A stretch of DNA of 64,000 bases from Octopus vulgaris. Lineage: Eukaryota. The stretch is taken from assembly GCA_951406725.2 (NCBI GenBank), contig OX597827.1, positions 80,352,001 through 80,416,000 of the forward strand, read 5' to 3'. Under the pieces are notes generated by a model, which was not told where the DNA came from, ran no database searches, and saw only the letters and a list, made by a program, of their open reading frames with translations. The position numbers and the translations under genes were made by a program. Shown here one piece after another: positions 6,062 through 56,353 of the stretch (its first letter is position 1; each line of letters starts with the position of its first letter).

Positions 6062-6099
<38 letters not shown>

Positions 6100-26425: not shown

Positions 26426-26575
26426 ATAAATACTATGAATACTATAAAACATTAACAGCAATGTAAAAAAAGATTCTAACACTAATGGTAAATCTAAAAT
26501 TAATATGCTGTTTCAAATTATACATTTAATTAGATAAATGATCAGAACTATTTTGATTTTGATGTTACTAGTCAC

Positions 26576-31836: not shown

Positions 31837-33192
31837 GGTTTCAAATTTTGGCATATCAACCCCAGTGCTCTACTGGTACTTATCAACTCAGGAAGAATGA
31901 AAGATGGATGAAATGCTGCTAAGCATTATTTTCCATGGTGTACTAACAATTCTGCCAGCTCATCACCTTAATAAAAATACTAACACTAATAATAATAATA
32001 ATAATAATAATAATTTCTTTTCTTGACCACAAATATTTTCTCTGCAGCCATGGTAGATGGGTCAAATCCCAAACTTGAAAAAAAAAAAAAAAGAAAATGG
32101 TGCTCTTTAGCAGACTAAGGATGACATTTTCTTGTTCTTATTTTTAAGATGGGAGGATATGGTTTGAGGAAGATTTGGTTGTTATGTTTAACAGATCAAG
32201 TAACAATGTATCATTTATTTAAAATAAAAATGACAGGAAAAGAAAATAATAATCAAAGAAATTCATCAAAATTGACTGAGTTTTTAAGAAAGATTGAAGG
32301 TGAGATAGTAAGAAATATCTAAGGGGGTAGATTGTAGTGAAAACAATAAGTATCATAATTCTATACTGAAAATATTACTAGAAAAACCAGCTGTAATTTG
32401 AATAGATATCCACACTAATATACCTAATTAAATTGGGACAGAAAAATTATCATGAGGTAGTACTAATTTTATATTCATTTTTAATTTCACTAAATAAATA
32501 CCCAATAATCTGGTTAATTTATATATCATGATTATTAAGCTGTTTTTGTGTTTTGTTTTAGTAACAGTGAGGCACACATTAAATGTTCAGAATTATATTA
32601 AATGTTGTTTGCCAAATCAAGGAAATTCTTTTTAAATTGATCATATAATGATGATGATTGCTTCAGATTCTGTCATTCTTTACTAGATTTAACAAACACT
32701 TATAATATGCTGATAGATTTCTCTTGTGACTGCTGTCAACTCTCCTTAGAAACTCAAAGCTCCAGCCCCATTTGTCCTTCTTTAGCATACAGTTTCAGCA
32801 TTTATCAATTCCAATTATACATTATTCTCCCATTAATTCTATACCATATTCCATGTGAATGAACTAATTTTTATACCAAACTGACATAATTTAGTAGATA
32901 TAATAAATATCTGTAGAAATTCAATAGCATTATTTGTTTTTCATCTCTAAGAAGGATTAGTTTGGGTGGTTGTGGAAATTGTCAATGTTAAATCTCAAAC
33001 AACATTTTAAGGTCTCACTACTACCAACCAGTTAACAAACAAAGTATCTGAAGAAGAAAAATATGTCTACTGATCACGGTTTCCCTTTCAGCTTTCATTA
33101 TATAGAGAGATCTATTTCAATAGAATAGGTTAAAACAACAACAAAGAAATAACAAACAAACAACAAACAAACAAAAAAATTTTTAATCTTAC

Positions 33193-33350
33193 CTTAATCT
33201 TTAATTCCATTATTGTTCAGTGTAACAAGAGTCATCAATTTTGTTAGAGCAGAAAGGTCCATTGAAGCTGCAGCTGTGTGTGTGTGTTTGCGTGTGTGTG
33301 CGTGTGTGTGACAATGGCTGTATATTGATGGAGTGGAGCTGTGAGTCAGT
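33193..33350 (-). promoter_or_regulatory. Putative non-coding leader exon/promoter of protocadherin D with the shared 16-bp element
   Basis: Donor AAG|GTAAGA at 33192; element gtgtgacaatggctgt at 33306-33321 plus tgatggagt at 33326-33334; AP-1-like tgagtca at ~33342. Confidence 0.6.
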
Positions 33351-34519
33351 GTGAACACTTACGTTCATGCCAGTGCCTCCTCTCTGTCAATATGTGTAGG
33401 TGAGCAAATGTAAGCATGCATTTTAGATATTTTAGATGGATACGCTTGAATGAGTTTTCCCATCGGCATAGATTGTTAGTTTCACTCATCTGCTGAATAT
33501 TTATTTCAGATTTCAAACAAAAACAAAAAAAACTGATACATCTGCCGTGTACGACTAATTGGTTTGATAGCTTTAGTGAACATCATGTAAAGCACCGCAT
33601 CACTATATTAATTAGATTAATTTAAACTGAAATTTATTTACAAATTAGGGAAAACAAAGTAAAAGCAGGATTTATAATCTTGATGAATATTTTTAAATTG
33701 ACAAAATTCTTAGAAATTTTTTGGTAAATCAATTTTTATATTTATTTTTTTTTAAAAAGCTACGCAAAAAAGGGAGAGAAATTCTGATTGAAGTCAAATT
33801 AACCTGCTTCATATTGTAAACAATGAAGGAGTGATATGTAAAGTTTGAGTTGATTAATGTTTTCGATGGCTGATCTACATCATCATAAAAATATGCACAA
33901 CCTTTAATTTTATGTTATTTCCTTATTATTTGGTAAAACATTAAATTCTTAAATTTAATAATGTTTTACCAAAATTGAACAATGTTCAGAACAAATTTTC
34001 TAGAAAAAGAAATTAAATATAAAAAAATTATTGAATTTCAATTCATAAATGCTTGTTGTGAAATAGTTAAAACTTTAACTATTCCAACATTCCAAAATAA
34101 CCAAAAAAAAACTTGCATTATTTCAGGCAATTCCATTAATGATAATAATGAATATGTAAATATTCACTCATTAAATTTTACAAAAATAAAATCTATTTGT
34201 CTTTCTATGTGTTCCTTTCACTAGATATCTTACTCATCTTGGATAAGTCTACCTTAAATAAGGGTTTACGTGAACTTCATAGAAGTGTTTATTTGAAAAG
34301 AAGTAACGAGTTCACTTTTTCATAATTACATTATTTTGTAGGAAAATGTTCTCTTTTGAATATATTATTATTTTTAAAGAGAAGATATGCTTAACATATT
34401 TCAGTTTTTATTGATAATTTGGAAACTTATTAAGATAATAGAAAAAATAAGTATATTGTTGAGCAAATAAGGATGGATTCATATACTTAGCTAAAACTTT
34501 CTAAACTGATAGGAACTGA

Positions 34520-36880
34520 AGGATTAAACACTCGAAGTCTGTAGTTGATTTTTCGATGTAAAAGTCACATTTTAAATACACTGCTGATATAAGACAGCAA
34601 TAATAATAACAATAGATATTTAGTTATTATTTCCTTTTGCTAAGGTTATATCTGATGTTGAAAGATTGAAAGAAAAATTCAGGAGTGAGGGAAAATATTG
34701 CTTATTGTTGTCTGTGTTTATATGTTTCAGATAATTTTTTTTTTTTTTTGGGGGGGGGGGAGAGATAGTGATTTTGTAATGTAGTTTCTGCATTGGTTTT
34801 GGTATGTGTTATCTCCTAAAACAGAGAGTATAAAGTGATTTAATACAGAGAAATTTAGAGAAAAACATTTTCAAAACAGTTAGCTATCTTATCCCAATGA
34901 TTGTGCTATAAAATCTGTCTAAAACAAAGAACATTGGTTAAAATGTAAATTATTTAAGAAAACGAAGAATCAGTTGATTGAATTTCGTTCTCCTTACTGC
35001 TGCTCCATATCCATATTTAAAATTAAGAAATACAAATATTTCTGAAAAGTTTCAAAGAATAATCAATAAGATAAATACAAGTGGATAAGCAAAATTAATA
35101 GCATAAAGCTTTATTCCTTAAATCTTTGTTAAGGAAATTAAATTTTACCTGATACTCCAGGTATTTCTTCATGTTTTGTATCTTTCCCTATTTCACTATG
35201 TTCTTGAATTGATACTGTGTTGGGTCAGAAATTTCACAGAGTTGAGCAGTCGTCCAAACTATCATTGTTAGATGTGACCAACTGGTTGAATATTTCTAAT
35301 CGAAAAGAAATATGATAGAACTTAGAACATAATTTCAATCAAGATAATAAATTGTCATTATTGAACTAGATTTGCTAATTAAGGATCACAGCTAAATTAA
35401 ATGTAAACTTCAATTATACAATGTCAATGAATTGTTATACATGTCTATAAATAGTGTTTAATAAATTAAAATAAATAAAATAATAAAAATTAAATAAAAT
35501 CTTACTAAAGATTTAGGAAAGGTTCTGTTTGAATAGATATTCCGCTTCACCATCTCTTCTGCATTCCTCGACATAGCAACAGAAGTGTTAGTCTGGTACA
35601 ACAATTGTTTCATCTCTGCTCTACCTTGGTAGGCTGTATTCTTTGTGGCAGCAGCTGTGTTATCTCTGTGTTTAATACATTTCATAATACACAGCGTTAT
35701 AGAAACAACAATAGCCACTGATATTATTACTGCTGATGATACAATGATAATAACCCATGTCATATGGACCCGACCTGAAGATTGTAAAGGTCCACTCTTC
35801 GACATTGGTGATGTCTCGTTACTAACAGCCAATACCAAAGTGACACTAGTTGTTGACGACTGAACTGGACTACCACTGTCCTTCACAACAAACACCAGCT
35901 CATAACTTCCAGCATCATTTAGATAAACTTGTCTGGAGAAGGATAAAGCACCACTGTGTGAGTTCATACTAAACAACTGTTTACCATTTCCACTGCTTTT
36001 TTAGAACTATTTTATATTCCTTTGATCCCATTGACTGTAGTTTGAATGTGTCATCTTTGAGATGACAGTTCACCCGTTGGACACAAACGGTCCTCTAACT
36101 ATTGATATAGACTTTATTTCTACTCCAAATGACATAACTACTATTTCTGAAGATATCAAAGTTGGTAGTTTCATTGCTTATGTGATGGTCACTGAAACTA
36201 CCAACTTTGATATCTTCAGAAATAGTAGTTATGTCGTTATTTGGAGTAGGAATAAAGTCTATATCAATAGTTAGAGAACCGTTTTTTTCATTTATTATAT
36301 GAACCAGAACAGTGTCTACAAAGAGAATATTGCTTTCAACTCTGGCTTCACATATAATTCACAATTTATTTTCAGCCACACATTGATATCTGCTTATTAA
36401 TACTCCAATTTTTCATTTAATTTAAAGTGCTTTAATTTTATATATGATGTTTTAGGATTTGCAATATAATGTTATTTTGCTGTTTTCTCCTGCATTTGAG
36501 CCAGATGCTATCACTGTAATAACTGGTTTCATCTTGTCGTATGTTCCCTCCAGTGATGCACGATAAATATTTTGAATAAGGGAGGCTAATAGTCATCATT
36601 CATGTCTTCAATTTGTTTTGGTACGGCTGTTCTAACTTCAGCAGAAATTTTACCATATCTGTTTTCAAGGTCTCTCTCTCTAATTTCCACTCCACAATGA
36701 TTTTTATTGATTATATCTGATCAAACCTCTTTGCTAAATGATATTCATTTAAAGACTTCTTCAGTCCTACATCTCTATATACTGGAATGGAAGATTTATT
36801 CCTTCACCATATTGATCCCTCAAAGTTATTTCTTCAACAAGAACCATAATGATATTCATTAAAGAATTTTGTTTTAACCT
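34520..36880 (-). pseudogene. Protocadherin pseudogene psi-C (rearranged large exon 35506-~36880; tail exon 35149-35295; possible exon 3 relic ~34524-34590)
   Basis: 35531-35990 is near-identical to the EC6-TM-tail of intact genes. A ~570-bp deletion joins EC4 (KEYKIVLKK) to EC6, a ~66-bp tail deletion is present, and an inverted duplication lies at 36085-36284. EC2/EC3 are decayed (TYDKMKPVITVIASGSNAGENSKITLY). The tail exon ends KHEEIPGVS|GT with stops. Confidence 0.9.
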
Positions 36881-38399
36881 ACCGTAACATTCTGAGTCAC
36901 TCCTACATTTTTCACCACAACTTGCTACAGTCATCTTTGCCCCCATCTCTAGCCATCTCCCCTTACACTCTTATGCAACATCCCCCTTTATCTCCTACAG
37001 ATCACTACTGTTGCTTAAGAAATTTACCAACAGAAAATATCATAATTTAAAGTTCATTTTTCTGTTGGGATGGGTCGGACAGTTTGACAGGATTGGATGA
37101 GATGCAGAGCCACAATGAGCTGTGGTGTCAGTCGTAATAAGGTTTCTACAGCTAGATGCCCTTCTTAATACCAACCACTTTACAAATAAGTATAGGGTGC
37201 TTATTTGATGCAACTGGCACGAGTGAGGTCACCCAATAACTTGCAAAACAAGACAAGAATAGGAAACAGGGAGAAGCCTAAATGGAGAGAGGAGAATATT
37301 CAAGAGTGGGGGAAGGGGGCAGTTGCTTTGATGCCATGTGTAGAGAGATTAAAGTGTGAAAGAGGAACTGGCCCAGGTGAAAGTTTCATAAGAGTGGGCA
37401 AGAGTAACAGATGGTTAGAGATGCAGGTGAATATAGTGAATGAGTGACAAGGGTGTGAGTGGGTTGATGGGAAACACCAGTATGGAGAGGGATAAGGGTG
37501 GGAGATACAGGTATTGGAAGGGGAATAGATCAGAAAATGATGGAATAATGAACAAAGTGTAGGAGCAGTTGGGAAGGAGATAGAGATATATATAAGAGGT
37601 CTGTCTGTGGTGAGCTGGCAATGCTGGATATGAGAAAGCATTATGAATGATAGTAGATATAAGAGATGTTGAAGATGGAATATGGCAGTGACTGAAGGTA
37701 CAGAAAGAAGGTGACTGATGGAAATAGTGGGGGTAGGGATAATAACAAGAAATGAAAATGGTTTCAGGGGTTAAGAAGGAGGGGAAGGTCACTGAAAACA
37801 CAAAGAAAGAGGAGAGGGAATGTAATATATGTTGATTCTACCCTCAGGTGATTACAGTTGCTGAGTGGTACTATAGATAGAAGAGTGATAGATATTAGGG
37901 GATGAGATGTTGGGAATATTTGATGTGGAAGAGACAAAGGAGGGGCTGGTCCCCATTTGTAGAAACATAAGGCAGTTTTAGGACATTGTTTTTTGCTGTG
38001 TTGGATGGGTCCTCTCAAGCACAGTAAGTGGTCAATCATCTCAGTTCTTAGTCATCTCCTCTTTAAGGCTTAGCATCTTAAGATCAGCCTTTATTGCTTT
38101 GCCTCATGTCTTCCTGAACCTCCATCCATAATAAGTGAACTTCCATCCATTATAAGTGACAAGCACTTTTTTAACCAGCAGACCTCATTTATATGCATCC
38201 CATGACTAAATCACTAGTTTTCTCTTCTGCACACTACATCTAAATCCACTTGTGCCCGATTTTTCTCACAATACATCAGCACTTTGTCACACACTCACAC
38301 ACACACTGACATTGCATGACTAATGGAGCGTATACACTTCATTCTTCTCTCGGCTTTGTATGTCCTCTGCACTCTCTACCCATGACTCACTATGTAACA

Positions 38400-41300
38400 C
38401 TGGTGTTTGCCTAGCCCCACCCCACCACCAAATGAACAAAAGGACTACTTTTATGGTATTCTTCTGCAAGCTACCTCAAAGATGAAAGGCAATGATCTCA
38501 TCTTCATAGCTGGGAATTTCAATGGGCATAGTGGGCAGCAGCCAGGTATCTTCCATGGTGTACATGGGGGCCAGGGAATTGGTTCCCAAAATAAAGAGAG
38601 GGAACAAGGCTACTGGAGCTTTGTGATGCAAATAACCTATTGATCTGCAACACCAACTAGAGGAAGCCTGCCAGCCACTTGATAACCTATTAACTGAGTG
38701 ACCATGCTGGCCAGATTGATTACATTCTCACCAGACAGCGAGATACATGGTTGCTCATGAATGCAAAGACCTTCCCTGGTGAAGAATTTACCCACCAGCA
38801 TAAACTAGTCATTAGTGACTTTAATCTTCAAGCCAGAAGGATGCCAAGAAGCAGACCAATCTAGAAAAGAAGGATTTGGAAGCTTAAGGATCCCTTATAT
38901 GGTCAGAGATTTAGGGACACTCTAATTTAGAAATTTGATGAGAAGGAGGAGGAACTACTGACTTGTATCATAGGGGGTAACTGGGAATTCCTGTGGGACA
39001 GCTTGCTGAGTGCCAAAGACCAAATCTGTAGCTGGTGCAAAGTCTCACCCAGACCTAGGGTGATGTGGTGGTGGAATAATGTTGCTGACAAGGCTACCAG
39101 AGCAAAGAGACAGGCCTGGAAGGAGTAGTAGATTGGGGGTAGCAGAGAATTGCAGAAGATAGCCAGAAGGGAAGCTAGGAGACCGGTATATCTAGCCAAA
39201 GGAAAAGTAGAAAAGAAATTAGCCCATCTTCTGTGATGTGAGGACCAGAGACTTGAAGCATGTGAGAGAAAATCGTACTGTGGTATGAGGGAAATGTATT
39301 TGCATAGATGATGGTGCATTTGCATTTATTGATTTTGCAAAGAAAGAGGCTTGGAAATGCTATTATGAAAGGCTGCTAAATGTGGAGAATGGAGAATGAA
39401 TGGGAAAAGGAGCGTATGCCAAATGATGACCCAGCTGGGGGACCAGCTATCCAAATCAACAGTAGCTTAGTGGATAAAGCAATTAAGGATATGAAAACAG
39501 GGAAAGCCCCTGGTTCATCAGGAATCTCTGCTGAGATGATTAAAATATCTATCAGAGTAGGATACAGCCTAGTCACCTGTATAGTTAATCAGGTTATCCA
39601 TGAGGGAGTCATATGCAACAATTGTTGTAGCAGCATTATAGTCAACTGCTACAAAGGGAAAAGTGATGCCTTAGACACAGATAATTACAGAAGCATCACA
39701 TTGCTGGACCAGGCGATGAAAGTCACAGAAAAGGTTATAGTTCAATTAATTAGGAAGAGGGTTAGTGTAAATGAGATGTAGTTTGGATTTGTGCCAGGCA
39801 AGAGCACATATATATTCCTGGGGAGGCAACTACAGGAGAAATATTTAGCCAGAAATAATCCTCTGTATCTGGCTTTTGTTGCCATGGAGAAAGCCTTTGA
39901 CAGAGTCCCTCTGGTGGTCAATGTGGAAGCTAAGGATAGATGAGTGGTTGGTGAGATCTGTACAAGCCATGTACAGGGATGCTATTAGTAAGGCGAAGGT
40001 TAGCAATGAGTATAGCAATGAATTCAGGGTACAAGTAGGGGTTCACCAAAGATCAATCTTCAGCCCCCTCTTGTTCATCTTAGTCCTCCAGGCAATAACA
40101 AAAGGAATTTAAGATGGGCTGCCCCTGGGAGCTCCTCTTTGCTGACGACTATGTTCTTATAGCTGAAACACTACCAGAATTAGAGAAGAAATTTCAGGTG
40201 TGGAAGCAAGGTCTAGAATCAAAAGGCCTTAGAGGTAATCTAGTAAAACCCAAAGTCTTAGTAAATAGGGAAGCAGACGAATCAGAAATCCCTTCAGGTA
40301 GATGGTCCTGTTTGATATATAGAAAAGGTATAGGCAGCAACTCCATAAGCTGTACCCCTATGGATACATAAGAGGCACAGCAATATCAGAGGAAGGATAA
40401 CAAGGAAGAAGGTGAACAGGTACAATTAACATTAAAAATGTATGGAAAATAGACTCTGTCAAATGCCAGGGGAAAAACTACAAGTAGCTGATAGCTTCCA
40501 TTACCTAGGTGACCAGGTCAGTAGCAGGGGTGGATACTCCAAGAGCATAGCTGCTAGAATAAGAATAGGTTGGGCAAAGTTCAGAGTGCTCCTACCTCTG
40601 TTGGAAACAAAGGGCCTCTCACTCAGAGTGAAAGGCAGATTGTATGATGCCTGTGTGTGAACAGCCATGCTACATGGCAGTGAAACATGGAGTATGACCA
40701 CTGAGGACATACATAGGCTTGAAAGAAATGAAGCTAGTGTGCTCTGTTGGATGTGCAATGTCATGTCATTGTGTAAGCATCTTGAAAGAAAAGTTGAGCA
40801 TGAGAGGCATCAGATGTGGTGTGCAAGAGGTGCGACTGTGCTGGTATGGTCATGTGATGCATATGGACAAGGACAGCTGTGTGAAGAAGTGCCGCACTCT
40901 AATGGTTGAAGGAACCTGTGAAAGAGGTAGACCCAGGAAGACATGGAATGAGGTGGTGAAGCATGTTCTTTGAACATTGGGTCTCAAGGAGACAATGACA
41001 AGTGACTGAGACCATTGAAGATATGCTGTGCTTGTGAAGGAAGACCTGGAAAGCCAAGTGAAATCATAGTCATGGCCGATGCCAGTGTCGCATAACTGGC
41101 ACCTGTGCTGGTGGCAGGTAAAAAGCACCCTTTGAACATTGGGTGATATGCTGTGCTTGAGAAGATCTGTCAAACCAAGTGAGATCCAGTCATGGCCAAC
41201 ACTGGCGTTGTGTAACTGGCACCCGTGCCGGTGGCATGTAGAAAGCGCCCACTACACTCTTGGAGTGGTTGGAATTAGGTAAGGCATCCAGCTGTAGAAA

Positions 41301-41405
41301 CATTGCCAGATCAGACTGGAGCCTGGTGCAGCCTCTGGTTCACCAGTCCCTAGTCAAACCGTCCAACCCATGCCAGCATGGAAAAACGGACATTAAACGA
41401 TGATG
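38400..41405 (+). mobile_element. Degenerate RTE-clade non-LTR retrotransposon (APE endonuclease + RT)
   Basis: ORF fragments LIFIAGNFNGH (APE), GKAPGSSGISAEM, NYRSITLL, VGVHQRSIFSPLLF, ELLFADD, MLHGSETW, RGRPRKTW; tail ccatgccagcatggaa...(GAT)n; many stops. Confidence 0.92.
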
Positions 41406-41914
41406 GTAACATCTGCTACAAGTGGTGGACTAGAATGAAACAACTATGCAAACATCAAACATATGAACTATGTTATCAAAGTAATTAGAAAGTAATTATG
41501 AAAGAGCTAAAACACAACTAATTGGGAAGAAAATTAGCTTGATGAGATGCAGTTTGAAATTGACACAGCATTACTGACACTCTTTTTTTAGTGAGAGAGC
41601 TACACACAATTCTTAGAACACCCCTATGATTAGCATTCATGAATCTGGAGAAAAACTTTGGAGAGTTCCTCACTGTTGTTTGGTGCTTGCTACAAAAAGC
41701 AAAAGCAAAAAAGAGGGTGGTGGGAATCACAGGTTTGTGAGAGCAATGCAGGCTACGTACAGAGAAACCAACAGCAAGATGATAATGAGCTCAGTGAGTA
41801 ATTCAACATGCAGTTAAATGTCCATCATGGCTTGGTTCTCATCTCTCTTGTGTTTATTTAATTCACCAAATCATAAGAGTTGTCAGTGGAACTTGTAACC
41901 TAATTATCGTGTTT

Positions 41915-42370
41915 TCTAAGCTGAATCTGTTGAAGATTCAGAGAAGAAATTCCAAACATGGAAACAAAGCCTTGAAATGAGATGCCTCAAAGTAAACCAA
42001 TCAAAGATAAAAGTTTTGGTTTGCCGGAAAGAAGACAGGACTCTTCAAGCATATGGGAAGTGGCTATGCTTAATATGCAGAAAAGAAGTTGGTAGAAATT
42101 TCATATGATGTAATAGTATGCAAAGAAGAGAACGAGCTGGTATGGACATGTGATGCATATCATGGATTACAGTTTGATAAAAAGAAAAAAGTGCCACATG
42201 ATTCAAATGGAAGGAATCTGTGGAAGAGGAAGATGGAGGGAAACATGGAAAGAAGAGGTGAAAGCTGATTTCAAGTTGGACCTAATGAAAGATATGACAA
42301 AATACTGAGCTGGAGAAGACCAATCCAGCCCATGCAAGCATGGAAAAAAGTGATGTAAAATTATAATAAT
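41915..42370 (+). mobile_element. Older RTE-LINE fragments
   Basis: Diverged matches to 40160-40330 and 40840-40970 (gagaagaaattccaaacatggaaacaaagcc; ctggtatggacatgtgatgc). Confidence 0.65.
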
Positions 42371-42395
42371 GACATTTAATAAGGAAAAGTATATA

Positions 42396-43655
42396 CAGGG
42401 AGCACTGTGAAGAATTCCTGATTATTTAAATAAGTTTATTTTATGAAATTTAGTTTGAAATTGCACAAAAATGATTAAAATGCACTCCTCAACATTCAGT
42501 TGTTCGTGCACACTGCACAGTTTGTTTAGTAAAATGTTTCAAAATGACAGTTAACAAATGAAGTGAGATTGTAGCTCTGAAAAAACAGGGCATGGCACTA
42601 AAGTCATGGCTTCAAGGGTTGAGGTTGATCCCAAAACAATCTATAATGTCATGAAACACTATAATGAGACAGGTTCAACGTACAGTAAACCCATTCCTGG
42701 ATCCATAACGATGAATCAATTGGTGGATCTTGTCTAAAAGAGAGTGTTATGAAATTCCCAACAGAGCATGAGGCCAATAGCTAAAAGTCTCGATATCTCC
42801 CAGACAACCATGCAATGGGTTGTGCACAAAGACTTAAATTGTAAGTCATTAAAATTGCTATGTCGATACCTAATTTCAGCCACCTCTAGAGCAAAGTAAC
42901 TGGACAGGTGTAAGAAAATGGCAGAGATTCAGAGCACCAGTGACAATATCTTCATCCGGTCAGATAAAAGATATTCACCATTGAGGCAGTAGCGAACACC
43001 CAAAATGACAAGATTTTGGCCACGAGGTCAGATGTTGTTCCTGAAAGTGCTAGTAAGGTGTTTCACCAAATGAAACCTGCCAGAGTGGTGGTTTGGGTGG
43101 TAGTATCATCCGAAGGTGGAAAATCTCCTCTGGTGTTCATTAAAGAGGGGACAAAGGTCAATTTAGCACTTTACATGAAAATGGAGGATAATGTGTTGCC
43201 ATGAGTGACCGAAACATTTAGAGATGATTACATCTTCATGCAAACGGCGCTCTTTCTTATACATCCAATGTGACACAAAAGTGGTGCAGGAACCATTTCA
43301 GCAGGTTTTGCGACAAGAATGCCAGCCTAGACATTCACCCAATGGACTTTGCTATTTGGTCCATTCTAGAAAGTAACATTTCAAGAGATTTCTACAAAAA
43401 TAGCACCACTCTGAAGAAAGCCTTAGTCATGTCATGGTATCATTTAAGTGAAGAAGTCACCTGGCGTTCCTGTAACTCTGTACTTGGTCGTTTTCAAGCA
43501 ATTGCAAAGGTTAAAGGTAGACATACTGAATTAAACATATCTTAATATGTTACCTGAGCATTTTTAATCAAATCCTAAAGAACCCATCTGTTTTTATGCC
43601 TTTTACTAAAAATTATGACTAAGACTCAATTGGGAGTTCTTTACGGCACACCCTG
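42396..43655 (+). mobile_element. Tc1/mariner-superfamily DNA transposon, full length (1260 bp), inactive; DDD-type (maT-like)
   Basis: TA|cagggagcactgtgaagaattcc ... gggagttctttacggcacaccctg|TA; transposase fragments IRSDKKIFTIE, VVVWVVVSSEGGKSPLVF and SLDIHPMDFAIW. Confidence 0.88.
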
Positions 43656-43797
43656 TACATTTGACAAGGCCCTTAGTTTTGTACATTTGTGCAAATGTGT
43701 ATGAGTACAACATTACAAAATATATGTAATTATACACTTTACATAAACCAAACAATGCAATAAAAACATTTTCATAAGATATTTTAACAAGACTTAC

Positions 43798-43925
43798 ATT
43801 GACAATAATTGTAAAATCCATTGTTGTAAAATCCAAAGACTTCACTTCCGCTGCAGTAAGAAAATCCATTGTAATTGTTGCTGTAGTAGTGTGACAATGG
43901 CTGTAAGGTTGATGAAGTGGTGGAT
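43798..43925 (-). promoter_or_regulatory. Putative leader exon/promoter of psi-C with the intact shared element
   Basis: Donor AAT|GTAAGT at 43797; gtgtgacaatggctgt at 43889-43904; tgatgaagt at 43910-43918. Confidence 0.55.
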
Positions 43926-44957
43926 CAATGTTGTTATACAAGGCAATTAGGTATGTCCCAATACACACTTGTATGGATTGCAGGCTGTTTCAATTATCCA
44001 CCAGGAATTGTATATTAACTTCACTCTCTTGTGTATGTGTGTGTGTGATCATATGGGATTATATCACAAATGGTGGACACATGGAATGTTGGTTGAAAAT
44101 CATCAATTGTGAATTAGTAGAAAAGTTTAATAGTTTTACCAGTAAAAGGGAAAACAATAGTTCTAAGTAATAAATGAGAACAACTGATATTCAAACAAGC
44201 TTTAAATTACAAAATAATTATGGGGAGTTATCTCGTGAGTTTCTAATTTAGGTACAAAGCCAGCAAATTTGAAGAGAATGGATGAATCAATTACATCAAT
44301 TCCACAGTTTCATTGGTATGTTATCAACCCAGAAGAGAAGAAAAGCAATGATGACCGTGGCAGGATTTGAACTCACTATGTAGAGAGTTGGAAGAAATAC
44401 TGCATGGCACTTTTCCAAATGCTTTAATAAGATTAAATATATATTATTTCAATATTTGCCTGAACTTGACATATGAAATTTTAATTATTTTTTAAATTAG
44501 TTTAGATTCATAAGTCATTTTTCTCTATTTCATTTAGTGAGCTATAAAAGTTGCAGATTATGTTTCTGCTTTCTAAAGGGGAAATTGCTTACTTTCAATT
44601 CTAAAACTTGGGCTACTTTGACAAGTATGATAATACATTTTCTCTATCCCATTCTGTCAGAGAGAATAGTAACAGTCTTACACAAAATTACTTCAGTAAG
44701 TGTTCACATCAAATAATATATAATTTAAGGGCATCATCATTTTGAACAAATTTTGCTTAAGAACTTTCAACCAATTATTTTTCAGTGACAAAGGAAGGAG
44801 AGAAGCTATAGAGAATGTAATCAGTATGAAATATCATGTGTAGCTGTATAATCACAATTTGAGTAAAATCTATTATTATAAGTAGAATGTCTTTCTATAA
44901 TGTGATATTGTATGCATTAAAGCTAAAAGAAAATCGAGTTGTATTAACTATCACATG

Positions 44958-45037
44958 TCACACGTGTTTAGGGTAGGTCTCTTGATCCTGATTTCTGTTT
45001 AGTGTTGATGTTATACTGTTTTTATATGTATCATTTC
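44958..45037 (-). CDS. Protocadherin B, coding exon 3 (terminal): (G)NDTYKNSITSTLNRNQDQETYPKHV*
   Basis: Strong acceptor (T)nCCAG, phase 1, homologous to exon 3 of A and D. Confidence 0.85.
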
Positions 45038-45356
45038 CTGGAAAAAAAAAAAAAGAAGAAAACAAATGAAAAACATAAAAATTCATTGCAAAATGAAGTT
45101 TGAATATTTTGACATGTTTCTGTCCACCAAATTCCACTGACAAGATATTGGTCAACTCAAGTCTTTGGTAGAAGACACTTGCCCAAGGTGTCAAGTAGTT
45201 GGATTGAACCTAGAAACATGTGTTAACAAAGCAAATTTCTTAACTAAAAAGCCATGCCTATATAGTTTATAATAATAATTAAACATTATATTTCAAGCAA
45301 AATGTCATGTGATTAGGTTAGAAGGGAAGGTTCATAATAATAATAATAATAATAAT

Positions 45357-45890
45357 AATAAGTGGCTCTCCTGGCTTCTGATCTTAACTGATTGGAAGTG
45401 TTATCATGTACATTGTTTTGTCTTGGTATAAAAGATGGGCTACAGCAAATATTCTGCTCAATGCCACAGATTTGCTTGTCAGTTGTTTGACCGTAACCAG
45501 TTGAGCATGTCCCTTAGTGGCTGATATGTGCATCTCTGACCACAAGCAGAAGTAGTGGGGGAGCATCATAGCCATGTGTTGAGAGGAATTCTTGGAGGTT
45601 TGGATAATTCACCTTTGGAAACATGAGTGGTTTGTTCAACATCCTTAAACAAACCTTTCGAGCAGGATGGGCTACTTGACCAGAAGAAAATTCTAATTGG
45701 GCCCCACCTGCAAGGTCATGCACTGTTTATCTTGATATGGGATCATCATGTCGTGCACATATGGTTGTGCCTAGTGTACCCTTATCAGACGGGTAGTCAT
45801 GATGAGTATATTGGGCTTCTTATATTTGTACCCCAGTGTCACTTTGATGGCATGCACTGCTCTCTCACTCAATAATGATAATAATAATAA
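45357..45890. mobile_element. Unclassified interspersed repeat flanked by (AAT)n tracts
   Basis: GC-richer ~510-bp island bounded by (AAT)n on both sides, inside intron 2 of B; family not assigned. Confidence 0.4.
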
Positions 45891-45899
45891 TGATTAAAA

Positions 45900-46215
45900 A
45901 GGAAATTATTGTGTATAGTGCTCAGGTGTACTACAACTTATCAAAGGTGTATATACAGTACATAGAATTATGTATAAATGTCAAAGTAAGTGAACAGTGT
46001 ATGAGTCATGATATATATATATATGTATGGGGGTGGAGATATCAGGTGTAGTGCTGGTGAATTTCAGGAAGCATGGAGGTTTTAAAGGATAGAATGCTTC
46101 AGCAATTCTGAGTGTGAAAAAATGTTTCTGAATGTCATGGGAGCTGTGCTGTTTTCTGACTTTGCAGACATGTCCACGTGTGTTAAACACATGGAGCTCA
46201 AAAAGGTAATCCAAC
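45900..46215 (-). mobile_element. CR1-type LINE 3' fragment
   Basis: NTRGHVCKVRKQHSSHDIQKHFFTLRIAEA matches the CR1 ORF2 C-terminal RGH..K...FF..R motif. Confidence 0.65.
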
Positions 46216-46354
46216 AGAAGTTGAATAAGATGCTTTGTGTTTTCATTTAGAAGACATCATTTTTATGATGAATTATGAACAGCTATACATTAATACTTGT
46301 TTATTTTGCTTAATTGTTTAAATTCAATTTCAAAACTGGGGATATCTTTCCTAC

Positions 46355-46499
46355 CTGAGGAGGTTACTGGTATCTCTTCATAATGTTTAGTACGACTGCT
46401 AGTCTGACTCGACAAGGTGTTAGTTGGATAGTTCGAAACAACAGATGTATCTTCCACAGCATCATCATTCGATGTTACCACAACTGGTTCGCTGTATTT
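46355..46499 (-). CDS. Protocadherin B, coding exon 2: KYSEPVVVTSNDDAVEDTSVVSNYPTNTLSSQTSSRTKHYEEIPVTSS(G)
   Basis: Acceptor (T)nGTAAACAG, donor CAG|GTAGGA, 145 nt, phase 0 to 1, open. Confidence 0.88.
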
Positions 46500-46685
46500 C
46501 TGTTTACAAAAAAAAAAAAAGAAAAATAAGTTTTAACACAATCAAAATTAAAGAAAAATTAAATTTTTGGTAAAACAGAGAACATCTGCTAATTCCTTAC
46601 AATGCATTAAAATAATGAATATGAAATGCATGAGAGCAAAAATGAATTTAAAAGAAGTAATGTTTAAGTAAATTTAATGATTATA

Positions 46686-47065
46686 GGCATAGGAGTGGCT
46701 GTGTGGTAAGTAGGTTGCTTATGAACCACATGGTTCTGGATTCAGTTCCACTGTGTGGCACCTTGGGCAAGTGTCTTCTACTATAGCCTTGGGCCAACCA
46801 AAGCCTTCTGAGTGGATGTGGTAGACGGAAACTGAAAGAAGCCCGTCGTATATATGTATGTGTGTGTGTGTGTTTGTCCCCCCCCCCAAACATAGCTTGA
46901 CAATCGGTGCTGGAGTATTTATGTCCCTGTAACTTAGCGGTTCGGCAAAAGAGACCAATAGAATCAGGACTAGACTTACAAAGAATAAGTCCTGAGGTCG
47001 ATTTCCTCGACTAAAGGCGGTGCTCCAGCATGGTCAGTCACATGACTGAAACAAGTAAAAGAGGA
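46686..47065 (+). mobile_element. tRNA-derived SINE (family 1) in intron 1 of B
   Basis: Full head-core-tail; explains why this intron is 593 nt versus 155 (D) and 171 (A). Confidence 0.88.
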
Positions 47066-47092
47066 AGAGATTATTAAAAATTGAAATCTTAC

Positions 47093-49468
47093 TGAAGATG
47101 GTTTAGGAAGGGTTCTGCTTTGAACTGAAGATTCATATTTGTTCTGTAGCTGACCTTCTGCATAACATTCACTCTTGGATCTCTCAGAATAGATATTCCG
47201 CTTCACCATCTCTTCTGCATTCCTCGACATAGCAACAGAAGTGTTAGTCTGGTACAACAATTGTTTCATCTCTGCTCTACCTTGGTAGGCTGTATTCTTT
47301 GTGGCAGCAGCTGTGTTATCTCTGTGTTTAATACATTTCATAATACACAGCGTTATAGAAACAACAATAGCCACTGATATTATTACTGCTGATGATACAA
47401 TGATAATAACCCATGTCATATGGACCCGACCTGAAGATTGTAAAGGTCCACTCTTCGACATTGGTGATGTCTCGTTACTAACAGCCAACACCAAAGTGAC
47501 ACTAGTTGTTGACGACTGAACTGGACTACCGCTGTCCTTCACAACAAACACCAGCTCATAACTTCCAGCATCATTTAGATAAACTTGTCTGGAGAAGGAT
47601 AAAGCACCACTGTGTGAGTTCATACTAAACAACTGTTTATCATTTCCTTGTATGATTGCATATCTGAGGAAAGCATTGTTTCCACTGTCCCCATCAGAGG
47701 CTCTCAAAACTGTGATGTCACTCTTACTCTGCGGATGGTACTGCACATTTAGCGTGTAAGGGTCACTACTAGGATATGTAAAATACGGAGCATTGTCATT
47801 TTGATCTAGAATCTCAACAACAACATTCGCTGTGTCATTCAGAGATGGGCTTCCATTGTCTTTGACAAAAACCTCAAACTTATACACATCTTGTTTCTCT
47901 CTGTCCAATGACATGGTCGCTGAAATGAAGCCATAACTGGTGATGAGAAATGGGAGATTGGATTTTTCTTTACGCAGCAGAGAATATGTGAGTTGTCCAG
48001 CAGATCCAAGATCAGGGTCAGTGGCATTGACAAAACCAATAGGGAAGTCTTTGTCTTTGTTTTCGTAGGTGAGGAATTGGAATGTATCTTTGGTAAACTG
48101 TGGTTGTACATCGTTGATGTCAGTCACTTGGATAGAGAGGCTTTTAACACTTTTCAGAGGAGGTAATCCTTTATCTTGACAGGAGACAGGAATGTTATAG
48201 TGTCCTTGTGTTTCTCTGTCCACTGGTTTGTTTAGAATGATTTTATATTCTTTAGATCCCATTGACTGTAGTTTGAATGTATCATGTTTGACATCACAGC
48301 TGACCTCTCCATTTTGTCCCACATCATTGTCAGTGACCATCACATAAGCAATGAAACTACCAACTCTGGTGTCTTCCGAAATGGTAGCTGTGTTGTCATT
48401 GACTGAAGAAACATAATCAATATCAATAGATGGAGGATTGTTGTGTTGGTTGATAACATTTACCAAAACAGTTGCTATAGAACTGAGAGGAGGGCTGCCC
48501 CCATCTCTGGCTTCAATAAAAAGTTCATAGGTTTTCTTTTTACTCAGATTTGAATATTCCCTTAACAAAATTTCCCCACTCGTTTCATTTAACTGAAAAT
48601 AGCTTTTTGCAAGATCTGATGTCTTTGGGCTGAAATGGAAAGTAATTTTACCATTTTCACCAGCATCAGCATCAGTTACAGATAAAACAATGATGGGTTT
48701 GGATTTGTGATGTGCACTTTGTATGGATATATTATATAGAGGTTTAGAAAATACAGGTGGGTTGTCATTGTCATCTATTATGGAAATATTTATGTTTAAA
48801 ATCCCTTGTTTTGCTGGCGAACCTCCATCTTTAGCTATGACTTGTAATAAATATGTATCTTTGATTTCTCTGTCTAATGATTCTTTTAAAACTATTTTAA
48901 GAGAAGAAATACCATCAGCTCTTTTAGACACTGACAGAGAGAATGGTTCTCCATTCTTTGATTTTAATTTATATTGTATTAAGGAATTTTGAAATCCAAC
49001 ATCTTTGTCCATAGCATTGGGTATTGATCGTTTTGTGCCTTTTCCATCTGTTTCCGAGAACTTTAATGAAATTTGCTTTTTGGGAAACTCAGGGTGATGG
49101 TCATTGATGTCTTCTATTACTATTTTGATTTTTAATATTTTTGTAATACTTCTTCCTTTATTGACAACAACCTTCACAGTTCTGGAACATTCTTTGTTGA
49201 ATGTGCAGAGATCTTCTGCATCCAGTGTCTGAGCAGTGTACAGTTTACCTGTTTTGGTGATGTTAAATAACTGTGCCACCTTTCGTTTGAATTGACTGAA
49301 TGTTATCAAATGTTGGTCAGATGGTTTAACATTGTCTAAAAGTTTAGAATCGGCAGCAATGTCTGCTACATATGTTCCTGGACTTCTCTCTTCTTCCACA
49401 TGGTAGGTAAGGTCTATGGTCAGGACACAGTGGACCAGTGACAATACAATAGAAAATGACAGGAACAT
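47093..49468 (-). CDS. PCDH: Protocadherin B, large coding exon 1 (SP, EC1-EC6, TM, proximal tail); full protein ~866 aa
   Basis: 830-aa ORF with six cadherin repeats and TM; donor TCA|GTAAGA at 47092; 5'UTR acceptor CTCTTTTTAG at 49522-24. Symbol is family-level only. Confidence 0.96.
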
Positions 49469-52407
49469 GTTGTTGTTTTATGTTGGTCTTGGTTCTGTGT
49501 GTGTAATGTGGTGCATGGAACCTAAAAAGAGATATAATTACATCAGATTAGATTTAATATGTATGTTATAACAAGGTAACATCATGTTAGGAATTTATTA
49601 TTATTATTAACATGTGAAATCATCATATGCTAACATACAATATTACATCAACATTTTGTCTATTCACACAAAATAACAATGGAGAAAAATCCACAGAGTA
49701 TGTCTGTTAATAAAGCTATATTTTGAAATAGTGTGCAATATAATTTACCTCACTTTAAATTGTGTTGATAATATCATTACTTGAGTTAACAATAAAAGGA
49801 AAATAATTTGTTTTGTACAAAGAACATCATTAGTAAAAGCAGAACTGCTGCAGTGTCTTCATGGAAACAATGACAATAAATTGATGGAAGTCTTGTGTGA
49901 ACTTCTAGGAGTGAATAAATGGCAACAGGAAAAAATATATAATTAATTAATAAAAATATAATTGGTATTGGTACACAAAGATTTCTTTTTTAGTTCTAAA
50001 TCCTTTTTTAACCTCTGAATCAAATAAACCACCCTTGGTAGTTTACAGCTATATCTTTTATCAGCACCAATGTTGTAAAAACCAAAGCTGTAATCAGTTT
50101 CCAACTAAAAAAAAAAAATGATTTCCACACTACAGTTAATTATAATCTTTTACATTCAATTTTATGCAAAAATTAGGGGCCTCATTTTAGTCTATAATTG
50201 CATGTTGTTGTTGTTGTTGTCAACCCAGATGGAGCTATGATTTAGAAGCATTCAAACCATGACCACATTATCTTATGTGTGTTTCTTTTTCAATGGTAGG
50301 CTGAGATTTGAAACGGATTTGGCCGCTACTCTGAGTAAGTTGAGCAACTGCATGGAATCTCCCAAATATTCTTACAAATGAAACATTTTCAACCAATTCT
50401 TTGAAGCATGAAAGAAGGTGGTATTATTTGTAACTCTGGTAGTCTAGAAATGTTACAACTTTTCTTGATATTTGAAACGAAAAAGAAAGAACAACTAGCC
50501 AGTATTTATTATATAGAGAAAAAAGTGGTTAATAAAAGTAGTTAGTGTCTAAAAGTTAGTGAGATGAAATGAAATATTACTTCGTATTACAAATGAGAGT
50601 TAGAAATGGAAGAGGATTTTATTGTAGCAATTTTTCTAAAATCTTCATTGTGTCTTGCAACCTTTTCAATAGTTTTGAAAAGGTTGCAAGACACAACAAA
50701 GATTTTAGAAAAATAAAGAAGGAAATGAGTGGAAATTTTACTGGTGAGTGTGTTAAATTATAAGGCACCAAAAGAGAATGACTCTCTTCAGACACAACAA
50801 AAGATGCTTCAACACACAAACTCACATAAAGAATCTTGCAAACCAAATCCAAAAATGAAATCAAGTTTGTTAATTAAATGGCTAATTTTGAAAAGAAATA
50901 ACATATAGTACCTTTCACTTTTACCAGTCACTCATTTTTTTGAAGCCATTATGGCTGTGACGAAAATAAAAATATAATATTTGTACAAACTTATTGTAAC
51001 CAGCCATATTTTTGAAACTGGGAATAGAAAAAAATGGATGTTTAAAATCTGTGAAAGGATTTTGAAATCGCTACCAATAATACGGATTTCAGATCTTCTG
51101 CTTTCCCAAAAACTTGATTTTAGATTCTCAAAAAGAAGTAATCAGAAATTTCTGTAACATTAACCAAGTATTTGGGTAATTTCTAAAGACATGCTAACCG
51201 TTTTTTTCATGAAAAGACTGAAGTGCATGTTAAGCATAGACCCATACATTTTAAAAGTTCACACATATGATTGTAACATTGCAATGATGTATTCATTGTT
51301 TCCCAGTTAATATGATGAATGCAATTCCATCATGAATAAAATGACATCAAACTATTCAAATAATTATAGAAATTACTGTTCAGATTCTCTCTGGATTAAT
51401 TCATTTATAATCAATCCTGAACAATAATAAAAAGATACATTACAAATTTAATCCAACAGGACAGATTCTTCACTTTATATTCAATCTGTTAAAGACTTTC
51501 TCATTACTATTCACTTCCTGACAGTGGTGTCCACCATTATCTTCAACCCAGAACTCTAACACACCAGTGCCTCATCACTACCAACAACCAACACACTATT
51601 ATTAAAATTCTGGTTTATTTCTTCATATTTTATCCCTAACATATCTTTCAAATGCAATCTAATGATACAGACAAAATATTACATTTTCCATACATCAAAA
51701 GCAACACTTATGTTGGGATAAGTAACAATAGCCGACATACGTGTAACAAATATTATAGAAACATAGTTTGGATTCAATTGAAAAAAATATAAATATTAGA
51801 GTTAAAGTTAAATTAAATCTCTCTCCCTCTCTCAGGTCTACAGAGTAATTGGAGATTATTGCATTGTTTAAGTAACTGAGAGTTCATGATTCCTGAACAG
51901 AAGCTAATCTCATGCAAGATTAACCCACAGCTTCTGCTGGTACTCATTTCCAGCTGAATTAACCAGAGCATCATCAGCTGAGTAGGAGAATAGTTTAAAT
52001 GAAAGTACCGTGAGAAAGAGATTGTTTGTAAAGCCAATGGAATGAAAATCAGAAATCAGAGTAGACAGAGAAGCATAGTAAAACAATGATTTACACCCTT
52101 ACTTTCTACTTCAAATTAAAAATATAAAGAAAAAATCTTTATAATGTTTTGTTTCATTTTACTACTATTTTTATCTCCTTTATTTTCAAATTGTTTTCCT
52201 GAAACAATTTTAACTCTAAATATTAAATGTTTCATGCAACATCATCCAATTGTGAAGGGAGAGGGGGACACAAAAACAAAAAACAAAAAGAACTGTCAAT
52301 ACAGACAATATTAGTGAAAAATATGTGAATAATTATTCAATCATTTACAGATTCAGTGAGTGATTATAAATTAAAATGAGATAGTGAAAGATTAACTAGA
52401 AACTTAC

Positions 52408-52545
52408 CTTTTTGATAATTATATCATTGGTTATTCAGTGAGAAAGAGAAAGATGTATTGTTGTAGAAAGATCCATTGTAAGTGCTGCTGTAATGGTGTG
52501 ACAATGGCTGTTATGGTGATGGAGTAGTGTAGCACGTCAGGCAGA
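52408..52545 (-). promoter_or_regulatory. Putative non-coding leader exon/promoter of protocadherin B with the shared element
   Basis: Consensus donor AAG|GTAAGT at 52407; gtgtgacaatggctgt at 52496-52511; tgatggagt at 52517-52525; TGACGT half-CRE at ~52534; CCAAT boxes at ~52785 and ~52810. Confidence 0.62.
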
Positions 52546-53311
52546 GACTCTGCTGCTAGGAGAGGGTTGCATGTGTCACTGAAGTTGTATGTTTGTAAGC
52601 ATTTGTCCTTAAAGATGATGTTTGTCTATTGTTACTTATGACAGTCTACATATATATAGATATATAGATATGTATTTATATAGCTAGAATATTCTACATT
52701 TAAACATAACTGGTTTAATAACACCAGTAATGCGAATGCTTAGCTTTCTTAGTGGTTTCTTTGCATGTTTTAGAGAGAATCTGATTGGTTGAATGACCTA
52801 AACAGAAGACCAATGATGTTGCTCCTTTACTACTGATTTGTTGGGAGAAGGTGAGACATTCATCCCTTAATCAGGTCTTGGTAATATTGATAGCTAGGTA
52901 AAATTTTAAATACATTTCTTTTTAAATCTCAGAAAATACTGCCGTAATTTTCACTAAAATGCTTTTTTTTTCAATCATGAGAATTTATTTTTGGTTCTCT
53001 ACTCCTTGCATTAATTATCTATACATTGTGGAGTAAATTTTAAAGTAATTGGAATGTTAATGATGAACATATACAAAATATTTGAAAAGTTCACCAACTG
53101 AATATATTTAATAATAATTCATTAATCAACACAATGTAATCTTTAGTAATTAAATTAACATTATGGCTTATTTATAGACTTGTTTCTGCAGAATATACTG
53201 ATATAGCGGAATTAATAAACAAAGTGTATGTTAATGCTGTTTGTGTATTGTATAGTGATATTGTATATTTTTATTGAGAAAAGTAGTTGTGACACTTCAA
53301 TGGCAGTTTAA

Positions 53312-53388
53312 TTAGACATGTTTCACTGGTGTTTCTTCACTAGAATCTTTTGATGTAGATGTGTCATTGTTTTTATAAATACTTTGAT
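53312..53388 (-). CDS. Protocadherin A, coding exon 3 (terminal): (D)QSIYKNNDTSTSKDSSEETPVKHV*
   Basis: Acceptor TTTTGTTTCTAAATTTCAG, phase 1, homologous to exon 3 of B and D (YKN, ET, KHV*). Confidence 0.82.
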
Positions 53389-53739
53389 CTGAAATTTAGA
53401 AACAAAATACACGTTTTACAAAATTATGATGTTGATGACCATTTTGCTAAGCAATATTAAAAAGAAATGCACTCCACAATGTAGAGCAAAGGTTTTTCCA
53501 ATAAAATGATGGACAAATGGGTCAAAAAAGATCTCAATATTTAGGATACGGTTTATATATTAATCTGAAGCTGAACCTGTCATTGGTATTCAGCGTGGCA
53601 ATGAAGGAAAGACCCAACTTTACTAAATATATATGTATTTTCTTCTCTACTATTTAGCTACAAAAAAAAACTTCACAAAGTGATTGAAAATAATAATTTC
53701 TTTGTAAAATTTGCATGAACATGACAGGGATAAGACTAA

Positions 53740-54150
53740 ATCATCATCATCATCATCATCATCGTTTAATGTTCACTTTCCATGCTGGCATGGATTGGAT
53801 GGTTTGACTGAGGGCTGGCGAACCAGATGGCTGCACCAGGTTCCAATCTTGATCTGGCAGAGTTTCTACAGCTGGATGCCCTTCCTAATGCCAACCACTC
53901 CGAGAGTGTAGTGGGTGCTTTTTACGTGCCAGTCAGGCAGTACTGACAATGACCTTGCTCGAATCTTTTTACACATGCCACTGGCACAGGTGCCAGTAAG
54001 GCGACACTGGTAACGATCACGCTTAAGTGGTGCCCTTTTATGTGCCACCGGCACGGAGGCCAGTTGGTCGCTCTAGCAACGATCATGCTTGAATGGTGCT
54101 CTTGGCACCCTACTAGCACGGGCACAAGTGCCAGTAAGGTGATGCTGGTA
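53740..54150 (-). mobile_element. RTE 3' end / RTE-tailed SINE
   Basis: (CAT)n tail plus tandem gtgccagtaagg units. Confidence 0.8.
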
Positions 54151-54399
54151 ACGCATCGCCTTATTCAGTTCTTACATTTTTAAGAATCTAGAATATAAAT
54201 AAAATCTAATTCTTACACCCTGACAGTTTATATACTTAAGAAGTTTGCTTTTCAACCACATGGTTGTGGGACTGATTCCACAGCCAGCACCTTGGGCACA
54301 TGTCTTCTGCTATATCCCTAGGCCAAAGAAAGCCTAGTGAGTGGATTTGGATGAGAGAAACTGTAAGAAGCCTGATACACACACATGTAGTAAATAGGA

Positions 54400-55200
54400 A
54401 TACAGATAAATCACTGGTCCCTTCAGGGAGATGTCCCTACCCAATACATAGAAAAGGTGCTGGTAGAAATTCCATACAACGTGCCCAATCTAAGCTATGG
54501 ACACATAAGAAGTGCAGCTGTATCAAAGGAAGGTTAACAGAGAACGTAGTCATTATGTATGGCAGATGTGCAGGGACAATAAACATTAGGATTATTTAGA
54601 AAATAAAAATTCTCTCAAATTTCTGGGCGATATCCTTAGAAACAGTAGATAGTTTCTGTTACCTAGATGACCAAATTATCAGTGGAGGAGGAAGCTCTGA
54701 AAGTGAAGTTACTAGAATGACAATGGGCTGGGCAAAGTTCAGGGAGTTGCTACCTTATTAACAACAACAGAGTGAAAGGTAAACAATATAACAACTGTGT
54801 ATGAACAGCTATGCTGCATGGCAGTGGAACATGGGCTGTGACTACAGAGGACATGCAAAGGCTTCAAAGAAATGAAGCCAGCATGCTCCACTGGATGGGT
54901 TATGTCATTGTGCATGCATGACAGAGTGTTTAAGGATTTAAGAGAAAAACTGGGTATAAGGGGTATCTGAAGTAGTGTGCAAGAGGGAGGACTGTGCTGG
55001 TATGGTCATGTGATGCATATGGATGAGGACAGTTGCCTAAAGAAGTGCCGATCTGTAATTGTGGAGGGAACTTATGGAAGGGGTTAACCCAGGGAGACCT
55101 GAAATGAAATGGTGAGAAAGGATCTTCAGATATTGAACCTCAATGAGAAGTGAGTGACATGTTTGGCAATTTGCTGTGCTTGAGAAAACACATCAAGCTT
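54400..55200 (+). mobile_element. 5'-truncated RTE-LINE fragment
   Basis: Aligns with 40280-41040 (ggctgggcaaagttcaggg, atgctgcatggcagtggaacatgg, ctggtatggtcatgtgatgc). Confidence 0.8.
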
Positions 55201-56353
55201 AGTAAATCCATACACACACACACACACACATAACTCTATCCTCTGGCAAAACTCATCAACAACCATCCCCCCACAATCCTCACTGCAGGCCTCTCCAGTT
55301 TCTTCTCAACATCACATGTTATTTCTAAAATCTCCTTTATCCCTTCTATGCTACTTATACTCCCTGTACACTACTTATGTTTCCTGTGAGGAGGCTCTCT
55401 CTCTCTCTGACTGTCCCTATCTTTCTCTGTCTCTCTCTCTCTCTCTCACCCCCTCTACTTTCTAGTTCTACTGGGGGAGACAAATATCTCCCCTGCAGTA
55501 AGACAGCTATCCCTGACCCCCTATCATACTTCAGTCTCCCATCTGGCATACACCACTTCTTTCAGTTCCTCTCTCTCTCTCTTAGCAGAGATGTCTTTGT
55601 CTTTGAAACCACTTGGTGACCCCACCCATGGGTAGTGGCACAATGTAAAAAGCACCCATACCAGCATCATGTAAATGCACCCAGTACCCTCTGTAAAGTG
55701 GTTGGCATTAGGAAGGGCATCAAGACAGGAATCATGCTAAAACAGACAACTGGGGCCTGGTGCAGCCCTCTTGGTTGCCAGCTCCTGTCAAACCATCCAA
55801 CCCATTCCAGCATGAAGAAAGAGATGGATGATGATGATGATGTGTGTGTGTGTGTGTGTGTGTATAAAATACATGTGTGCGTGCGTGAACATGTTTGTGT
55901 CTCGTTTGTATTAGTATCACATGATAGTTGTAAACAAATGTTACTGTCATAGAAGTGGTGGTGTTCATTTGCTACGTGTGAAAACCTATCCAGTCACTGT
56001 GATGTTCATGTTCAAAAGACTAGGAGAGATACTACTTCTTGGAAACAGTGAATCTAGATATTTGTTGACAGGTAGAGCAGCTGGCCTTAGGAAAATCTAC
56101 TTTTGTTAATTGAAACTGATTCATACTAACACAGCAAAAAAGAAATTCGATACACTTAGGGTAGAGTCTGCTCCTTATGCAGAGACTGTACTGTGCATAC
56201 CTATTTCTTTACTACCCACAAGGGGCTAAACACAGAGGGGACAAACAAGGACAGACAAACGGATTAAGTCGATTACATCAACCCCAATGCATAATTGGTA
56301 CTTATTTAATTGACCTTATGGCATACAAAGCATTGATAAGTATGCACAGTGAC

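Follow-up and report, generated by a model that had tools for sequence, protein, structure and literature searches.

The subject of this analysis is a window of 64,000 nt from Octopus vulgaris (contig OX597827.1; all positions below are window coordinates). This window holds five units (A to E) of an Octopus vulgaris-type protocadherin array, whole-gene duplicates placed head-to-tail on the minus strand, of which A, B, and D are intact and C and E are broken. A 16-nt sequence (the 16-mer) recurs unchanged at units B, C, and D and, judged by alignment, is the invariant core of a homologous block of ~70 nt. We propose that this block is a promoter-proximal or first-exon DNA element that each duplicate inherited and that was kept as a transcription factor site driving each paralog's own promoter, an explanation to which we give a probability slightly better than even (roughly 0.52). 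The words "leader exon" and "promoter", as applied to these blocks, are predictions.

The core lies on one strand, with one copy per unit:

52496 to 52511, minus strand: 16-nt core of unit B, exact
43889 to 43904, minus strand: 16-nt core of unit C (orphan leader), exact
33306 to 33321, minus strand: 16-nt core of unit D, exact

All three copies were exact, as the first-pass annotation of this DNA had reported, and the flanks it described were also found, with TGATG(G/A)AGT 4, 5, and 5 nt off the core and TCCATTG..GCTG on the other side. Once self-BLAST repeats and exons had been masked, which removed 40% of the window and left ~38 kb, the 16-mer was the only same-strand word of at least 13 bases common to three distant places. 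In shuffled sequence, the mean number of matches to the 16-mer with up to 3 mismatches was 0.69, and at this threshold the window contains a single further match, at 43261. This copy lies on the opposite strand, within an apparent transposase remnant, and was treated as chance. The stretch that contains it (43200-43540, plus strand) resembles a decayed Tc1/mariner transposase; Pfam found no match there.

Similarity between the copies is not confined to the core, and the conserved blocks were delimited as follows:

52463 to 52534, minus strand: conserved ~70-nt block of unit B, with CATCA, core, and an upstream ATG at 52476
43856 to 43927, minus strand: conserved block of unit C, upstream ATG at 43869
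33251 to 33336, minus strand: conserved block of unit D, in two parts around a (CA)n expansion (33275-33310), upstream ATG at 33262

Blocks B and C were identical at 57 of 72 positions in an ungapped alignment (blastn E 9e-15). Read in the sense direction, the 5' part of the layout consists of C(C/T)ACT(C/T)CATCA, 4-5 nt, the core, and a CAGC stretch, and the 3' part of CAATGGA(T/C)(C/T)TT, ~60 unalignable nt, and GTAAG. No collinear alignment of the copies was found outside the block. The earlier statement that the surroundings do not align was therefore right for the DNA past the block, but it missed that homology is wider than 16 nt. In leave-one-out models from which the 16-mer was removed, the left-out leader was each time the top non-training match, at 37.5-46.6 bits versus at most 21.7 for other matches. 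Since such coreless models of two leaders find the third, the homologous unit would be the whole small exon-like region. GC content reached 34-46% at the core and dropped to 22-23% one bin further on.

Each block is followed by a predicted splice donor:

52403 to 52408, minus strand: predicted leader donor of unit B, AAG/GTAAGT, last exon base 52408, 69 nt from the upstream ATG
43793 to 43798, minus strand: predicted leader donor of unit C, AAT/GTAAGT, last exon base 43798, 72 nt from the upstream ATG
33188 to 33193, minus strand: predicted leader donor of unit D, AAG/GTAAGA, last exon base 33193, 70 nt from the upstream ATG

A GTAAG[AT] word occurs within 125 nt of the core in all three copies, compared with 5.3% of unmasked positions. 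The donor had been placed 90-115 nt from the core, which was correct for D (113) and C (91) but not for B (88). Polypyrimidine-AG acceptors were located 56 (A), 53 (B), 54 (D), and ~50 nt (E) upstream of the start codon, in line with the ~50 nt first given for these four units, the E start reading ATA. Because the large exons open at acceptors 50-56 nt before the start, a separate leader exon per gene would indeed be needed, as had been argued. A donor and a matching acceptor before the ATG are thus both present at conserved places, as predicted for a non-coding leader exon. The predicted leader introns measure 2.9 kb (B) and 3.9 kb (D), and the leader of gene A is predicted beyond the window edge.

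How unexpected an unchanged core is depends on the divergence of the genes that carry it. Within the large exon's unconverted 5' half, 43 of 90 four-fold sites match between B and D (52% differ; Jukes-Cantor distance 0.89), and simple arithmetic puts the chance of 16 identities at this divergence at 0.48^16, or ~8e-6. Since 16 consecutive identities are this improbable without selection or conversion, identity of the 16-mer likely reflects selection. A tree was built from 31 N-terminal halves, that of A and 30 hand-picked from 138 fetched proteins. There D was sister to Argonauta P0003 (99/93) and fell outside the group of A and B, which implies that the split between B and D predates that between Octopus and Argonauta. 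This tree leaves the position of B unresolved; in the tail tree, run in its quick version only, B grouped with Argonauta P0012 (91, not starred).

The copy at 43889 deserves separate consideration. A copy had been assigned to each unit, and this holds for the intact genes B and D, but the third belongs to broken unit C, in which the 5' end of exon 2 is gone. Accordingly, a profile of the large-exon 5' end found A, B, D, and E and no remnant of C, whose acceptor and ATG have disappeared. Of the columns conserved among A, B, and D, 36% are changed in C, and yet the C core has no change. Neutral decay would leave the core so with a probability of 0.0008-0.0065, a calculation that overstates decay if C was already divergent before breaking. 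Since an intact core is improbable under neutral decay, the C leader would be either live or recently converted. In the first case it would still be in use, whether spliced over 14.5 kb to the D acceptor or serving as a non-coding promoter or a decoy; in the second, a B-like leader would be the source of its renewal. The same C fragment is present in an Octopus sinensis gene model.

Upstream of broken unit E, no copy was found at up to 4 mismatches, and the region holds one weak candidate:

23464 to 23593, minus strand: weak candidate for a decayed leader of unit E, core at 23563-23578 (10 of 16 identical), GTAAGT at 23468

This was the best non-training match on the sense strand, and 3 of 400 shuffles reached its score when spacings were taken from the three intact leaders. 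A first scoring (1 of 500 shuffles) was set aside because its spacings had been chosen after the candidate was seen. Finding a decayed candidate where the leader of E would be expected would lend weak support to assigning the element to the downstream gene. Separately, the word CCACTCCATC at 24516-24545 resembles the upstream section of the D block and stands directly before a ~270-bp microsatellite; it is possibly a second remnant, or chance. The description "cluster-wide" went further than the window allows, with three copies only, the gene A leader outside the window, and E lacking an intact copy.

In the explanation we favor, the paralogs would share the element because whole genes were duplicated together with their promoters. 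For the same reason, co-regulation of the paralogs would be the expected outcome, and competition between promoters would not be needed. Common descent of tandem duplicates likewise explains the sharing that had been ascribed to a convergent choice mechanism. Transcription would start in or just before the block, the leader would be spliced over the 2.9-3.9 kb intron to the large exon, and a shared neural activator would bind the block. A site for a Sox-type factor is predicted, with an HMG/Sox protein on the inverted pair CCATTGT...ACAATGG as our guess. We take this pair to be a Sox/HMG motif, GCCAT to be YY1- or initiator-like, and TGTCA/TGAT to be TALE-like, as possible co-sites or alternatives. 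Passages of a study in cuttlefish (bioRxiv 10.64898/2026.09.23.753964) report working regulatory elements that overlap the first exon, with upstream DNA alone failing, which makes the placement of the octopus block plausible.

Several observations weigh against this explanation. The block would also be within the mRNA, so that RNA-level and DNA-level roles are inseparable, and no TATA or CCAAT word occurs at a position shared across the copies. There are three copies, all from one end of one sub-array, and gene conversion is active in this array. The block and donor of C are intact despite the lost acceptor and ATG. As for the E candidate, it was first spotted by eye, it was missed by nhmmer and by models built on the flanks only, and an antisense site at 43247 outscores it (30.8 vs 25.8).

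The position of the block within a predicted transcript also suggests a different role, that of a 5' untranslated region (UTR) element whose conserved upstream ATG dampens or gates protocadherin translation. All three leaders have the upstream ATG with a G after it, at a fixed distance to the donor, the encoded peptides begin with MDL or MDF, and CCATTG(T) can pair with (A)CAATGG across the upstream ATG, a pairing predicted in the folds of B and C. However, the folds were no better than those of shuffles (z of -0.16, -1.10, and 0.00), and D folds differently. The upstream open reading frames also vary, with 13 aa in B, 22 aa in D, and an open frame at the donor in C, and the upstream ATG of D has a T at -3. 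In a scan of 41500-56000, a range with the D block outside it, no Rfam family was found at the B or C block (7 sub-threshold matches lay elsewhere). We therefore regard an action in the mRNA as unlikely. A structured RNA hairpin was rejected, as fold stability was no better than that of shuffles and no family matched at the B or C block.

An addition to the inherited promoter element, suggested in the first-pass annotation, is that a cluster-wide element equalizes promoters that compete for one activator or enhancer, leading to stochastic isoform choice. The same position per unit, the exact identity, the head-to-tail array, and the analogy with the conserved sequence element (CSE) of vertebrate clustered protocadherins, as described in parts of PMC7811963, would fit such competition. 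Yet no CGCT box was present within -300..+120 of any of the three copies, which also bears out the earlier remark that the element does not resemble a CTCF motif. Moreover, passages of two single-cell reports (PMC9712504, PMC12240821) describe many protocadherins per cell, with ubiquitous and cell-type-enriched members. These passages fit deterministic control. Stochastic choice as first proposed is unsupported, and we rate promoter competition as quite unlikely.

The copies could also belong to the gene before them, as part of an extended 3' UTR or read-through of A, B, or C that carries, for instance, a microRNA or RNA-binding-protein site. Measured from the start of the preceding unit's last exon, they lie ~0.9, 1.1, and 1.5 kb further on, a closeness that the first-pass annotation had not weighed, and no AATAAA occurs between the gene B stop and the element. 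Read-through fusions are also mentioned for protocadherin annotation in a passage of PMC9712504. On the other hand, there is no intact copy downstream of intact D, while broken C has one, and gene A has AATAAA at 53275 and 52989, ahead of the element. A donor at a conserved distance would be unexpected in a 3' UTR, and the downstream genes need a leader somewhere; we therefore judge this assignment very unlikely. A link of RNA-letter 10-mers to miR-122 was rejected as chance; one abstract calls miR-122 vertebrate-specific.

Homogenization without function was given a similarly low standing. Across all five units, the broken ones too, the large exons share 96-100% identity in their 3' half but ~46-97% in their 5' half (compared over 16956-19226, 26894-29320, 35531-35991, 47093-49521, and 60137-62568), a difference that points to gene conversion. 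Short-tract conversion or a recent unequal exchange could have homogenized the leaders in the same way around a functionless 16-mer, and this would explain the intact C copy. However, the identical tract is just 16 nt long, indels and mismatches flank it on both sides, and collinearity ends past the block, a pattern that resembles patchy constraint rather than a tract. We infer that constraint fits a short identical tract bordered by indels better than conversion does, and strongly doubt the latter as the source of the 16-mer. Converted coding tracts carry species-specific letters, as seen in the protein tails. The homogenized 3' half covers the last cadherin repeats and the membrane segment, and conversion appears to refresh pseudogenes, leaving diversity in the outer repeats.

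Finally, an interspersed repeat or chance match is hardly credible even in a repeat-rich window (40% masked, including exons), because all three copies share a strand, no unit has more than one, and their position with respect to the donor is constant, and because the window repeats occur on both strands and do not contain the 16-mer.

The protein-coding units themselves were mapped as follows:

60137 to 62568, minus strand: gene A large exon, acceptor at 62568, ATG at 62512
~59810 to 59965, minus strand: gene A exon 3; last exon at 53312-53388
47093 to 49521, minus strand: gene B large exon, ATG at 49468
~46350 to 46499, minus strand: gene B exon 3; last exon at 44958-45037
34815 to 36900, minus strand: broken unit C, with the large-exon middle, exon 3, and last exon degraded
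26894 to 29320, minus strand: gene D large exon, ATG at 29266
~26571 to 26738, minus strand: gene D exon 3; last exon at 25303-25382
16640 to 19350, minus strand: broken unit E, start codon ATA, with frameshifts, stops, and a stop inside exon 3

Because none of A, B, and D shares its exon 3 or last exon with another unit, the units are whole-gene duplicates; passages of PMC9068888 state that coleoid protocadherins arose by full gene duplication with gene conversion. In broken unit C, a 461-bp 3' piece of the large exon is 99% identical to A, B, D, and E. The proteins of A, B, and D (3 of 3) each contain a Cadherin_2 and five Cadherin stretches, that is six cadherin repeats, and a hydrophobic segment. 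The best protein matches of the array genes were octopod protocadherins: the product of gene B matches P0122 / CAI9733504.1, and gene D is 100% identical to Octopus vulgaris CAI9733503.1 over 98% of the query. The exact open-frame proteins, whose frames run past the donors, had no identical entry in the protein collection. A fused Octopus sinensis model, P0121, keeps the order of the units (A-type genes, B, the C fragment, and D).

Some other features of the window were recorded along the way. A near-perfect hairpin at 50633-50711, in the predicted first intron of gene B, matches several microRNA models below their gathering scores and may be an inverted repeat or an unannotated microRNA precursor. 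The stretches 38498-41405 and 56600-59594 form a collinear interspersed repeat of ~3 kb, 74-81% identical and without a Pfam match, which has a third partial copy at 54388-55198 and shares its end with a ~190-bp repeat found many times. A ~390-bp repeat is inserted at 46691-47070, just past the donor of the gene B large exon, with copies at 5954-7069 and 13614-14007.

Octopus and squid protocadherins expanded to 150-300 genes, independently of vertebrates. How single cephalopod protocadherin genes are chosen was not stated in the literature we searched. A full-text search, with most subscription journals outside it, gave no description of this element or of any cephalopod protocadherin promoter element. 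The full 16-mer was not found in print on either strand, and 13-mers of it appeared in 12 unrelated papers. A metagenome scan for CATCA, gap, and 16-mer returned 0 matches, and one for relatives of protein P0001 gave 92 pattern matches of which 0 were confirmed, with no cephalopod locus among the data scanned in either case. On this evidence, the element is real, and it is apparently constrained and undescribed, although the leader exons may already be listed in the annotation file of PMC9712504. Since the element likely marks the start region of each gene, it would offer an entry point to how these genes are activated: a short invariant motif at each gene start can be scanned for, footprinted, and mutated, which cephalopod reporter transgenesis makes feasible. 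The orphan C leader would offer a natural test of promoters outliving their genes. Even on the plain reading, a shared inherited promoter element with hidden non-coding first exons, the gene models would gain leader exons.

Among known systems, the closest parallel is the vertebrate CSE, which in the passages of PMC7811963 is likewise a short element at a fixed 5' place in each tandem member, kept while the flanks diverge. The octopus copies differ from it in having no CGCT box, with two scattered AGCG words at unshared positions in the same interval (-300..+120). Their placement differs too: they fall within or next to a predicted separate non-coding leader, 3-4 kb away from the start codon, whereas the CSE sits just upstream of the variable exon. 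Furthermore, each octopus unit is a complete gene that has 3' exons of its own, not a variable exon joined to constant exons, and the octopus family expanded independently of the vertebrate clustered one. Because it has neither the CGCT box nor the variable/constant exon design, the octopus element, as far as its sequence tells, is not a member of the vertebrate CSE/CTCF family. A functional counterpart is conceivable, in which the block would be a non-CTCF cephalopod version of the CSE that equalizes promoters across the cluster, neurons would thereby pick paralogs combinatorially, and the C leader would be live as a second first exon of D (14.5 kb away) or as a decoy, but we think this rather improbable. 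Passages of PMC9712504 give ~19 protocadherins per cell, or ~21 in a neuron, with members that are ubiquitous and others enriched in certain cell types, and those of PMC12240821 a similar split in squid. Such a split fits deterministic control and is compatible with a stochastic component; the near-identical 3' halves may blur these counts per cell. With the coleoid arrays in the passages of PMC9068888, the window shares head-to-tail multi-exon genes, pseudogene fragments, and homogenized tracts. Those passages describe no leader exon or shared promoter element. Finally, the octopus block is like the cuttlefish actin II and syt11 elements (parts of bioRxiv 10.64898/2026.09.23.753964) in that regulatory information would lie over the first exon; those are single genes, with elements defined by assay for transposase-accessible chromatin (ATAC) and reporters, and the likeness drawn here is one of placement.

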